Source of the DNA: a virus
Lineage: Duplodnaviria > Heunggongvirae > Uroviricota > Caudoviricetes
Direction: 5' to 3' (one strand)
Virus record (IMG/VR): IMGVR_UViG_2526164602_000011
Coordinates: 1 to 26,099 of that record
DNA: 26,099 nucleotides
This document shows, piece after piece, positions 18,001 to 21,000 of this stretch; within the stretch, counting starts at the first letter, position 1, and each line of letters starts with the position of its first letter. Position numbers: made by a program.

Positions 18001-21000
18001 TGAATCCGGCAAGTAACCCCTGTGCAAATCCGCTCATTCACCACTCCTTAAAACAAAGAACCAGCAATGCCGCCAATTACTGCTCCAGCAACAGCACCAA
18101 CAGGACCACCAACGGATGCGCCAATAGCCGCCCCCGTACCAATGCCCGTACCGATATTCTGCTTGTTCTGCGCTTTCTGTTGCGCCGCCATCTGTTTGTT
18201 CGCAGCCTCAATTTCTTCACGTCGTCTGTCTGCGTCACTTATTCCCTGTAATGCCTCACGCCGCGACTGATTTGCAATATCCAGTAAACCGTATCCCATA
18301 TTGCCCCCTTACGCTGCCACCAGTTGGCCGCCAACACTCAGTTTCTGTCTTGCCGGTGCAGAAGCCCCCGTCAGAATATTCATCTGGCGATCCTGTTCGG
18401 CTTCACGGATACCATTTTTCGCGCCAGCAATTGCCAGGGCATTACGTAACCCCAGCGTATTACTGTCGGGATTATCCGGGCGGTTTACCCCGTATCTCGC
18501 CATCTGGTTATCCTGCGCCATCTGCGCTGTACGGAGACTGGAAGTGGCAAGGCCTCCCACCCGTGCAAGCTGTGCATTCATCAGACTGTTGTTCTCCCCA
18601 AGGTCAGCCAGCCTTGCCACGCGGGGCAAATATCTGGTTCGCCAGTCGTCGTATTGTTGGCGTGTCAGCGCTGCTGACGTCTGCCAGTCACCCTGTGGGC
18701 GGTCTGCTCCTGAATAACCAGCCCTTGCGAGAGTTTCGTATTTGCCATACTCCATAATTACAGTCTCCAGTTCTGAGCCTGATGCTGAATGGCATTAGCG
18801 CCGGTGCCAGGTGTTTTAGCACCGCCACTTCCTCCGCTACCGCCAGCCTTATGCATCGCATATGCACCTGCCGCACCCAGACCAGCGCCAACAAGAGAGG
18901 CTCGCCCCTGCTGTTTCGTAAACGCCGCCTGTGCATCCGATTTAGCTTTTGCCAGACTGCTGTCTGCCAGAGAGTTAAAACTCTGTAACGCATCCGCCTT
19001 CTGACCAGAACCGAGAGCAGCAACATCCTGTAGCCCGGCAACATACTTATCTGCCTGCGATACCTGCCCCCGTGTGGTTGTGTCAATCTGCCCGGTTACC
19101 TGGTCACTCTGGTTCGCATTCATTACCGCATTAAAACGACCACTGGATGGGTCAACGCCGGACTGAGCAAGATTACCCGCAAGCTCCTTCCGTGCTTCGC
19201 CAAACTGTTTCTGATACCCCAGATTTGTGGTGCCAGCAATATTGTCGTACTGCTGCTCACTGTTCAGGTCATCGACCTTTTCCATGAAGTTATCTTCAGC
19301 CGGGCGGAGGATATTTTTGTAATCCTGCCACCCTTTCCAGGCCACTTCTTCCTGTGCTATTTGCGCTGCTGTTGGTTTTACTTTGGTATCACCACCGCCT
19401 TTACTTCCACCCATAATGGCCCCCTGGATAACAAAAAACCCTGCCGGAGCAGGGTCAGAATGTGAATTACAATGTTGGTTTAAACACAATGATGAAAACT
19501 GTAGCAGTCAGACCGCTATCCTGAACACCATGAAGCCATCCTCATCATCCGGCATTCGCTCAAAGCCCAGTCGTTTTCCCAGCCGGATAAATCCCCGCCT
19601 TGCCGTATGGAACTCAGCCCAGCGTCCGCCAGCCAGATGGGTTAATGTCTTCACCTCCGGCAGGTAACGCTCAACGCTGTTACTCCCCGTACACACGCCC
19701 AGCAACACCAGAACATAAGGGATACCATCAGCACTGAGCACAGAACGCAGCACCAAAAAGCCATCAGGTGCCTCAAAACAAAACGCCTGCTTTTTAAGGC
19801 AGGCGTCTTTAACTTCATTCATAAATTCAGGGTTGCGGGAATTTCTCACAACACGCTGCATATACCAGAGAATTTTATCGTTCATTCTCTCACCTGAAAC
19901 GGGTGCCATATCGGCTGAACCTCAGCAACCAGTTGACGGGGACTCTCGTCCCCGTCGCGGTTTTCCTACTGCTTACACTGTAAGAACGCCGCAAACTCCG
20001 CTCCCCACAAATTCAGCCGGAACTCACACAGTGAACCGTGCAACATCCAGATGGTGAAGATAACCGTCATGCAAATTGTGACGGTGATAAGCGATTTTTG
20101 CGACATAGCGCTTGACTCCTTTTACAGAGAGGCGCTAACCTTCTACTTGCTTAAGGTACGAAGTGTTAGGGCCTCGGGTTAACGTTAAGTTGACTCGGGG
20201 CCTTTCCACATCAGGCCTTCAGGTTCACCCTCCAGCCATCAGCCGAAAGGCACCCACGCATAATTTACGGTTTTTGCCCTGTACGGGCAATAAAAAACCC
20301 GCCATCACAGCGGGTAGTAAACGGTTACCGGATACAGGTCAGAATTTCAGGCCAATGCCAGCAGTAACGCCACTCGTGCGCCAGTCGCCAGAGCCGGAAC
20401 CTTCGTAAGCCACATCCAGTGTAACACTCTCATTCAGGTTAAACTGTGCACCTGCAGCCCACGCAAGGGAGGTTTTTTTCGTGCTGTTGCTTTCAGAAAA
20501 TCCGCCACTACTGTTAATATTGTCCTTAATTTTCAGGTCAGCGCTAACTTTAGCAACGCCCATCCCTGCCATCGCATATAAACTCATGTACTGATTAACC
20601 CGCCATGAAGGCCCCGCTAACAGACTCCAGTAATTCGCCCTGATATCCGTTCTGGCAGAAGCTGCCGGATTCTTAATCTTCCTGGTATGATCGGCTGACT
20701 GCACATCAATAAATGTCTGTGAGTTAGTGAGAGAACGCGTCCATGTAAAAGAGGTGATAACGCCAAAATCATCCGTTATCTCGTAGCGATACCTGATATT
20801 AATGCCCTGTGGATTTTTATCCTTGCCTTCATATCCACTGACCCGACCATCTGTATATTCGCCCAATGAAGAAAAGTAGTTTCTGTTGACGAAATGACTG
20901 AAAGTCTCCCTGTTATGAGCAGTCGCATCCTTTACAAAATCCTTCAGTCCCGGAAACTGAAAGTGCGCATACCCCAGAGAAATTGTATGCTCTCCTTCTG

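Follow-up and report, generated by a model that had tools for sequence, protein, structure and literature searches.

A probable second, divergent hok/sok-type module behind lom in a 933W/Sp5-type Shiga toxin phage

The hok/sok locus of plasmid R1 is the paradigm among toxin-antitoxin (TA) systems of type I. Its features serve here as background for comparison, and according to PMC9841398 R1 mok needs to be translated only as far as the hok ribosome-binding site (RBS). For the Shiga toxin (Stx) phage 933W/Sp5, Takada et al. (2021) treat hokW-sokW as the phage's hok-sok locus; hokW is reported to aid lysis and phage release after induction, and its deletion led to a twofold drop in release (PMC8621323), while no mention of a second hok locus was found in the text of that paper. 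A recent preprint (Escalera-Maurer et al., 2025/26; bioRxiv 10.1101/2025.08.07.668861) has catalogued 32,532 Hok loci and reports two hok copies in 3.5% of hok-carrying phages. Here we analyse a stretch of 26,099 nucleotides (nt) from a Caudoviricetes virus (IMG/VR record IMGVR_UViG_2526164602_000011, positions 1 to 26,099; hereafter the window), which is a 933W/Sp5-type Stx phage at 100% identity and which carries, besides hokW, a second hok-like locus that we call hok-2. We read positions 19900-20290 (minus strand) as a complete hok/sok-type type I TA module, a moron lying 3' of lom, with a probability of about 0.85. The toxin gene, the module limits, the antisense promoter and the strand asymmetry of the antisense hairpin were computed, while the RNA mechanism is argued by analogy with R1 and supported by folding.

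The nearest point of comparison lies in the same genome. The hokW/mokW/sokW locus (6982..7370, plus strand; Rfam sok 113.5 bits; mapped from the annotation of AF125520; PMC8621323) comprises the hokW coding sequence at 7151-7306, sokW at 7102..7032 (minus strand) and an fbi-like GCACCC near 7363. hok-2 shares with it the overall layout, a GGGUGC 5' end, a downstream fbi-like GCACCC and a post-stop hairpin. Both loci also place an antisense promoter shortly upstream of the hok RBS, with TAACCT as the -10 box in each. The two loci differ in that HokW has 51 amino acids (aa), is HokC/HokD-like, has an in-frame MokW extension and reaches the Rfam threshold, whereas Hok-2 has 46 aa, has no conserved mok and scores 35.6 bits against the same Rfam model; the recognition tails of SokW and Sok-2 are unrelated. 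Of the two, hokW alone has been the subject of experiments in its native context.

The toxin gene and the limits of its module

The hok-2 coding sequence (19966..20106, minus strand) encodes the 46-aa peptide MSQKSLITVTICMTVIFTIWMLHGSLCEFRLNLWGAEFAAFLQCKQ, a member of Hok cluster '72' of Escalera-Maurer et al., and is recognized by its Pfam and PHROG matches and by a frame that stays intact in its copies. A first-pass annotation of the window, made from the sequence alone, had attributed Hok architecture to this open reading frame (ORF) and proposed a comparison with the family profile as a check. That comparison bore it out: Pfam HOK_GEF (PF01848) scores the ORF at 33.2 bits, above its cut-off of 22 (E 4e-8; the match takes in positions 6-42 of the 42 in the profile), and PHROG_251, 'MokW-like host killing', matches over the full length at E 2.8e-24. 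The Hok pattern is present throughout (C12, T14, L26-C27-E28 and C44) and corresponds to the preprint's Hok logo, with its conserved C16, T18, L30, C31, E32 and Cys/Tyr position 48 (bioRxiv 10.1101/2025.08.07.668861). C12, T14, C27, E28 and C44 did not vary across seven distinct aligned variants, and the residues invariant in Hok-2 copies are C12, T14, W20, C27, E28, R30 and AAFLQCK; the SLCE and AAFL-x-CK residues first pointed out as conserved are both in place, the latter as AAFLQCK. The RBS is likewise as first described, AAGGAG at 20116-20121, 9 nt ahead of the ATG, and the 3' hairpin said to resemble that of the first locus has a stem of 9-10 base pairs (bp) at 19934-19957 with a counterpart at about 7318-7338. 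A suggested comparison of the two hok regions showed their leaders to be homologous and the proteins to be 37% identical (BLASTP of Hok-2 against HokW, 35 aa, E 1e-8). The ORF is under purifying selection, with the 46-codon frame unbroken in 15 of 15 distinct copies and a nonsynonymous-to-synonymous polymorphism ratio (pN/pS) of 0.40-0.65. These lines of sequence evidence support hok-2 as a genuine second, divergent Hok-type toxin gene in an Stx phage.

The gene and its toxin are nevertheless already known, contrary to the novelty implied at first: they are annotated in RefSeq and PHROGs, and an identical peptide is among the constructs assayed in the preprint. The label 'unannotated' holds for older entries such as the original 933W record AF125520, in which the ORF has no annotation, but not for RefSeq, where the PGAP pipeline names it 'Hok/Gef family protein' (WP_000078907.1), nor for pharokka-annotated phages, which carry it too. 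Some sources label the protein 'HokA'. The HokA equivalog NF007290 is indeed its best NCBIfam match, yet at 38.4 bits it falls far under the cut-off of 89, which rules out Hok-2 as a HokA orthologue; the score for the Hok subfamily model NF007279, 22.7 bits, likewise falls short of its cut-off of 73. Within the preprint's clusters at 60% identity, Hok-2 is identical to 72_1589 and the P2-phage-type copy to 72_1621. In the preprint, cluster 72 is described as highly abundant, both sequences were cloned for toxicity assays (72_1589 as construct LRP157 in Table S2), and only three of 45 sequences are named as non-toxic, 72_1589 not being one of them (bioRxiv 10.1101/2025.08.07.668861). By exclusion from the text we infer that the Hok-2 peptide is toxic on overexpression.

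The limits of the module were set by comparison with diverged copies, collected at 78-93% DNA identity together with one from Salmonella diarizonae at 63% protein identity. Stx phages in which the module is linked to lom, P2-like phages, tail regions of lambdoid phages, islands, a plasmid and Salmonella supplied the 15 copies. In Stx phages their place is behind lom; in P2-like phages (P88, Chuche) and in prophages beside serS they follow ogr or the tail gene at the end of the phage; others lie between gpJ and a tail-fibre gene of a lambdoid prophage, in islands and on the plasmid. Copies at 80-85% identity match exactly window positions 20275..19901, and when flanks are included in the alignment the similarity starts at the -35/-10 pair and stops directly after GGCACCC, with unrelated sequence on either side. 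As delimited by these alignments, the module is about 400 bp long and runs from its promoter at 20262-20290 to the fbi element at 19900-19925. Its upstream edge is marked by the intrinsic terminator of the preceding lom gene, found by a terminator scan at 20297..20315 (minus strand; ACCCGCTGTGATGGCGGGT followed by TTTTTA).

The antisense gene and the folding of the hok-2 mRNA

The first-pass annotation had also credited hok-2 with an antisense, sok-like promoter of its own, and profile, homology and comparative evidence back this claim. The predicted sok-2 promoter (20112..20141, plus strand) consists of TTGACT at 20112-20117 and TAACCT at 20136-20141, separated by 18 nt, and is identified by its conservation. 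TAACCT is invariant in 14 copies; TTGACT with the 18-nt spacer occurs in three lom-linked copies (the window, L010 and L012), and the other copies have TTGCTC or TTGCCT with a 17-nt spacer. The boxes are thus where they had been placed, but they do not have quite the same sequence and spacing as those of the first locus, as had been stated: sokW has TTGCCT-17-TAACCT, with an identical -10 box, one base different in the -35 box and a spacer different by one nt.

The predicted Sok-2 RNA is about 55-60 nt long (20148..20208, plus strand; based on the fold, with both ends predicted), its start being placed at about 20148 because the annotated start of sokW maps 7 nt after TAACCT. Its predicted layout is a single-stranded 5' tail of about 20 nt, a 16-bp hairpin (20168-20204) and a UUUCC tail, with a folding energy of -32.5 kcal/mol (z -5.55). 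All 14 of 14 copies give the hairpin a far higher stability as antisense RNA (-28 to -42 kcal/mol) than on the mRNA strand (-21 to -27 kcal/mol), because several of its pairs are G-U, and such strand-asymmetric stability is what selection on an antisense RNA predicts. Across the copies, 93.5% of the cells of the hairpin are paired. The Rfam sok model aligns over its full length to 20093-20255 on the minus strand (model positions 1-157; 35.6 bits, E 2.4e-6 for a 651-nt stretch). At the sequence level, a putative cis-encoded antisense gene with promoter and terminator hairpin therefore lies over the toxin leader.

On the toxin strand, the predicted hok-2 promoter (20262..20290, minus strand) has a -35 box TTGCCC at 20285-20290, a 17-nt spacer and a -10 box TAAATT at 20262-20267; in 14 diverged copies TTGC--, TA-ATT and the 17-nt spacing are kept while the sequence of the spacer varies. 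From the limits of the copies' matches and from the fold, a minimal mRNA of 355 nt is predicted (19901..20255, minus strand), from a GGGUGCC start to the end of fbi. It folds at -156 kcal/mol (z -5.75), and its minimum-energy structure is closed over a long range, the first 26 nt being paired with the 3' element. The partners are a tac-like 5' element, GGGUGCCUUUC (20245..20255, minus strand), near-invariant in 15 copies and able to pair with fbi or ucb, and an fbi-like 3' element, CUGAGGUUCAGCCGAUAUGGCACCC (19900..19925, minus strand), complementary to the first 26 nt of the mRNA. Judged by duplex energy (-28 to -36 kcal/mol), each of 14 copies can form the tac:fbi pairing, despite differing 3' sequences.

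An alternative fold is predicted from the alignment and from truncated forms of the mRNA. RNAalifold, applied to 15 copies, returns a pairing of the 5' end with nt 50-59 in place of tac:fbi, GGGUGCCUUUC with GGAAAGGCCCC. Those nucleotides form a ucb-like element, GGAAAGGCCC(C) (mRNA nt 50-59; 20197..20206, minus strand), which would be the partner of the 5' end in the 3'-truncated, active conformation. This consensus helix, columns 1-14 with 47-59, is also the minimum-energy structure in all truncated forms tested and has its counterpart in the first helix of the alignment to the Rfam sok model. RNAalifold further pairs the start-codon region with an invariant stretch of the 3' coding sequence, AUGUCGCAA with UUGCGGCGU, a pairing that accounts for the lack of variation at synonymous sites in that stretch. 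The RNAalifold consensus, which has the tac:ucb, start-codon:3'-coding and post-stop helices, shows 17 pairs with compensatory changes; the post-stop hairpin, GACGGGGAC-GAGA-GUCCCCGUC (19934..19957, minus strand; terminator scan and fold), shows changes of this kind from GC to AU at two pairs in five copies.

Truncating the 3' end in silico moves the 5' end from fbi to the internal box, and a candidate antisense-target hairpin then forms at mRNA nt 81-126 (20130..20175, minus strand), for which RNAalifold pairs 83-95 with 118-129. In the truncated folds its loop, CUUAAGCAA, forms an exact complement to the 5' end predicted for Sok-2, and the 3' base of the hairpin (CCUC) overlaps the anti-RBS sequence. 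The folding models thus predict both the alternative tac:ucb pairing and a target hairpin that presents its loop. In both the full-length and the Sok-bound fold, CCUCUCU (mRNA nt 123-129) pairs with the RBS (AAGGAG, 20116..20121, minus strand), and the truncated form leaves the RBS slightly more accessible than either of these, in the same direction in 15 of 15 copies, the difference being marginal (0.01-0.03) in about half.

By analogy with R1, the hok-2 mRNA would be made from its own promoter and locked in an inactive state, with tac paired to the 3' fbi element and the RBS and start codon sequestered. Loss of the 3' part would let the 5' end pair with ucb and expose the target hairpin, whose loop would be recognized by the 5' tail of Sok-2, a short and presumably unstable RNA. 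The Sok-2:mRNA duplex would then be destroyed by RNase III and/or the RBS would be sequestered anew by the released anti-RBS sequence CCUCUCU; the latter switch is put forward tentatively, given the small thermodynamic effect. A fall in Sok-2, whether through loss of the prophage, shut-off of transcription or, after induction, late-operon transcription that crosses the sok-2 promoter head-on, would allow Hok-2 to be translated and to permeabilize the inner membrane.

The leader, the missing terminator and rival explanations

The statement that hok-2 has no mok-like upstream frame is confirmed. There is no start codon at the mok position and no mok frame overlapping hok in the window; the only leader ORFs (20135..20211, minus strand), from ATG 20211 (8 aa, MWKGPEST) and GTG 20209 (24 aa), both end before the hok RBS, the longer at a TAG inside the sok -10 box 14 nt short of it, and neither is conserved as a frame. 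Leader lengths of 144-150 nt across the copies differ by amounts that are not multiples of three, frames and stops vary even between near-identical copies, and a frame of 60-70 aa overlapping hok is found in four of 14 relatives, starting from two different positions. Since no mok frame is conserved, repression is probably independent of the blocking of a defined leader peptide. One possible route that needs no mok is the release, on Sok binding, of the CCUC held in the base of the target hairpin, which could then pair with the RBS again as in the full-length fold. All 14 E. coli copies retain an ATG at mRNA nt 45 (20211 in the window) with GAAGG in front of it, although the peptide it would encode is not conserved and ranges from 1 to 61 aa; the constancy of this stretch may reflect the overlapping Sok terminator and ucb, or else a minimal ribosome-loading site.

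The 3' end of the module also departs from expectation. A strong terminator lies about 20-35 nt after fbi in nine of the 11 copies examined in other contexts (L004-L008, L013, L015, L020 and L022), whereas the window and the other lom-linked copies have no intrinsic terminator just 3' of fbi; the Stx-phage copies have lost or replaced it. Many of the nine terminators outside the lom context share CCCGCAGCGUAAAAACUGCGGG. In the lom-linked copies the RBS and ORF of L0129 directly follow fbi, and the first terminator-like hairpin downstream, a perfect palindromic stem of 11 bp with the form of a terminator on either strand (19779..19809; UUUUGUUUUG on the minus strand, CTTTAACTTC on the plus strand), lies within the L0129 ORF and is kept in these copies; it may end the hok-2 transcript. 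Without a terminator behind fbi, the 3'-processing step of R1 may not apply here as such.

Several observations weigh against the reading of a complete module. Besides the loss of the terminator that most other copies possess, the U-tract of the Sok-2 terminator is limited to three residues. The Sok hairpin offers little covariation, with one compensatory pair and 13 of 500 shuffles reaching the observed score, a weakness that follows from a stem that is almost invariant. The Rfam sok score of 35.6 bits lies below the gathering score of 59, so that the locus went unreported in a window scan at the gathering threshold, and the predicted shift in RBS accessibility is small (0.32 against 0.35-0.51). 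A scan of both strands of 19400-20800 for consensus promoters found none, because both -10 boxes (TAACCT and TAAATT) are non-consensus, and the promoters were assigned by conservation of their boxes instead. The toxicity result comes from a preprint, was obtained by overexpressing the coding sequence alone and is drawn by exclusion from its text. We found no transcript, mapped transcript end or record of toxicity in the native context for the locus, and two papers on enterohaemorrhagic E. coli, searched for transcript or ribosome-profiling evidence (PMC5597208, PMC5331693), contain nothing assignable to it.

One rival explanation keeps the module but takes the leader ORF as a minimal mok. Ribosomes would start at the ATG or GTG at 20211/20209, read the 24-codon frame and melt the RBS:anti-RBS pairing, and Sok-2 would block this start because its 3' end abuts it. 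The invariance of the ATG at nt 45 with its upstream GAAGG in the 14 E. coli copies fits this idea, as does the short reach of translation needed in R1 mok (PMC9841398), and nine of 14 copies have a leader frame reaching nt 112 or beyond, while a 60-70-aa frame overlapping hok is present in four. We nonetheless consider a minimal mok rather unlikely, in that frame, start and stop vary in near-identical copies (in L011, whose Hok protein is the same, the stop falls at nt 79 or 92), leader lengths do not differ by threes, the Salmonella diarizonae copy is without the whole ATG region, and the Sok terminator and ucb that overlap the stretch explain its conservation equally well.

It is improbable, too, that hok-2 in this phage is no autonomous TA pair at all and instead forms part of the late/tail unit since the loss of its terminator, acting as an accessory peptide in lysis or host takeover with the antisense RNA of minor importance. 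Its co-orientation with lom and L0129-L0134, the absence of a terminator after fbi and the role reported for hokW of the same phage in lysis and release (PMC8621323) would all be in keeping with this, but the promoter, the tac and fbi elements and the sok promoter and hairpin are as well conserved in lom-linked copies as in the others, and selection should act against a Hok left unregulated in a lysogen, but the stretch occurs in 1675 of 5426 complete E. coli genomes. That hok-2 is a decaying, non-functional relic, as proposed for several chromosomal hok loci of K-12, seems to us very improbable indeed: the lack of mok and of a terminator of its own, the sub-threshold Rfam score and a mutated RBS (AACGAG) in one Salmonella copy are outweighed by an ORF that is intact in all 15 diverged copies and under purifying selection, by the conservation of all the regulatory boxes and by the toxicity of the peptide as deduced from the preprint text. 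We therefore retain the complete hok/sok-type module as the preferred reading.

A bolder extension of the module reading would make cluster 72 a naturally mok-less branch of hok/sok, repressed purely by an RNA switch and/or RNase III, whose Stx-phage member has become terminator-less and fused to the late genes, with Hok-2 triggered by Q-dependent head-on transcription at the end of the lytic cycle. We regard this combination as speculative and on balance doubtful. If it were true, two independently wired membrane toxins would tune the timing of lysis and of Shiga toxin release.

hok-2 beside hokW, its neighbours and known systems

The two hok loci are opposite in orientation, as first noted. 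hokW, on the plus strand, lies distally in the early operon that runs leftward, as the cIII thermoregulator at 926-984 indicates, at the end of that operon, while hok-2, on the minus strand, stands behind lom in the late/tail region; the two operons are convergent, and the inverted arrangement arises because each hok is co-oriented with its own operon. The speculation that the inversion is functional does not hold up against this gene map: among the other phage contexts looked at, the hok-2 module occurs without hokW and mostly co-oriented with an upstream late or tail gene, and as a solitary module it is found in many unrelated contexts. A functional inversion of the pair was accordingly rejected. 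Duplexes formed by the 5' tails of the Sok RNAs have energies of -47 and -49 kcal/mol with their cognate targets and of -19 and -21 kcal/mol with the non-cognate ones, and the two modules are probably regulated independently since the recognition tails of SokW and Sok-2 differ.

Phage 933W, VT2-Sakai (Sp5) and numerous further Stx1- and Stx2-converting phages share the stretch 19900-20340 at 100% identity, and it was by megablast with this stretch that matches were obtained in the 1675 of 5426 complete E. coli genomes cited above. On the minus strand the local order is a tail-tip gene, small membrane genes, lom (20339..21073; Pfam Ail_Lom), the hok-2 ORF, homologues of L0129-L0133 and an ORF of 2806 aa (8321-16741, minus strand). 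The last of these is a homologue of L0134 and, judged by its LPD38, LPD5, LPD1 and MuF_C domains, a large polyvalent protein. The L0129 homologue was called as a 133-aa ORF (19508..19909, minus strand), of which PHROG_610 aligns residues 9-133 only. Its start is probably ATG 19885, with an AGGTGA RBS, and not ATG 19909, which sits in the fbi element of hok and is absent from hok copies in other contexts; the start at 19909 was therefore dropped from the account of hok-2. At the other end of the window, the matches of positions 1-8400 to Stx phages fall into three pieces, spread over 13.1 kb in those records against 8.1 kb here, and about 5 kb of reference-phage sequence seems to be absent from this region. 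No integrase-sized ORF was found on the plus strand between cIII and hokW; in some reference records an integrase is among the features annotated under the 1-8400 match.

A scan of genome contigs for relatives gave five loci only, all of E. coli/Salmonella type, two of which (L020 and L022) were usable for covariation. Three of the five lie on contigs labelled Xanthomonas pisi, Planococcaceae MAG and Vagococcus sp. (L018, L019 and L021), which carry E. coli-type hok-2 modules with 100% and 76% protein identity to the query and flanks typical of E. coli, and these copies are probably assembly contaminants. In E. coli N51, beside serS (L015), two 46-aa Hok/Gef genes stand in tandem at 95-235 and 570-710, about 475 bp apart, each with its own AGGTTAGCGCC region (sok -10); the pair has the appearance of a module duplication.

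The second module, intact and probably orthogonal, could obscure hokW phenotypes or contribute to them, and deletion studies should consider both. The hok-2 module is further a natural test case for whether part of the Hok family can do without mok, a point left open by the recent Hok survey. Otherwise the result is a matter of annotation catching up in old phage records and no discovery. As far as the searchable literature shows, the RNA-level organization of the hok-2 subfamily and its role in Stx phages have not been described. The preprint analysed coding sequences only and explicitly left Sok, Mok and mRNA structure aside, and its main text does not mention the Stx-phage context (Stx, 933W or HokW) (bioRxiv 10.1101/2025.08.07.668861).

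Among named proteins the nearest to Hok-2 is HokA of E. coli K-12; the HokA-like sequence of the preprint alignment is 40% identical, and Hok-2 is shorter than HokA and has a different C-terminus. It differs in the same respects from the toxin of R1, having 46 aa and ending in QCKQ where the R1 protein has 52 aa and ends in AYESGK, and unlike R1 the hok-2 locus has no conserved mok, no terminator close behind fbi and a Sok U-tract of 3 nt. Like the hok/mok/sok (parB) system of R1, it encodes a small toxin of the membrane and, in cis, a predicted antisense RNA that covers the leader; in the predicted folds it also shares tac:fbi and tac:ucb pairings that exclude each other, a target hairpin offering its loop to the 5' tail of the antisense RNA and a start region paired with downstream coding sequence.

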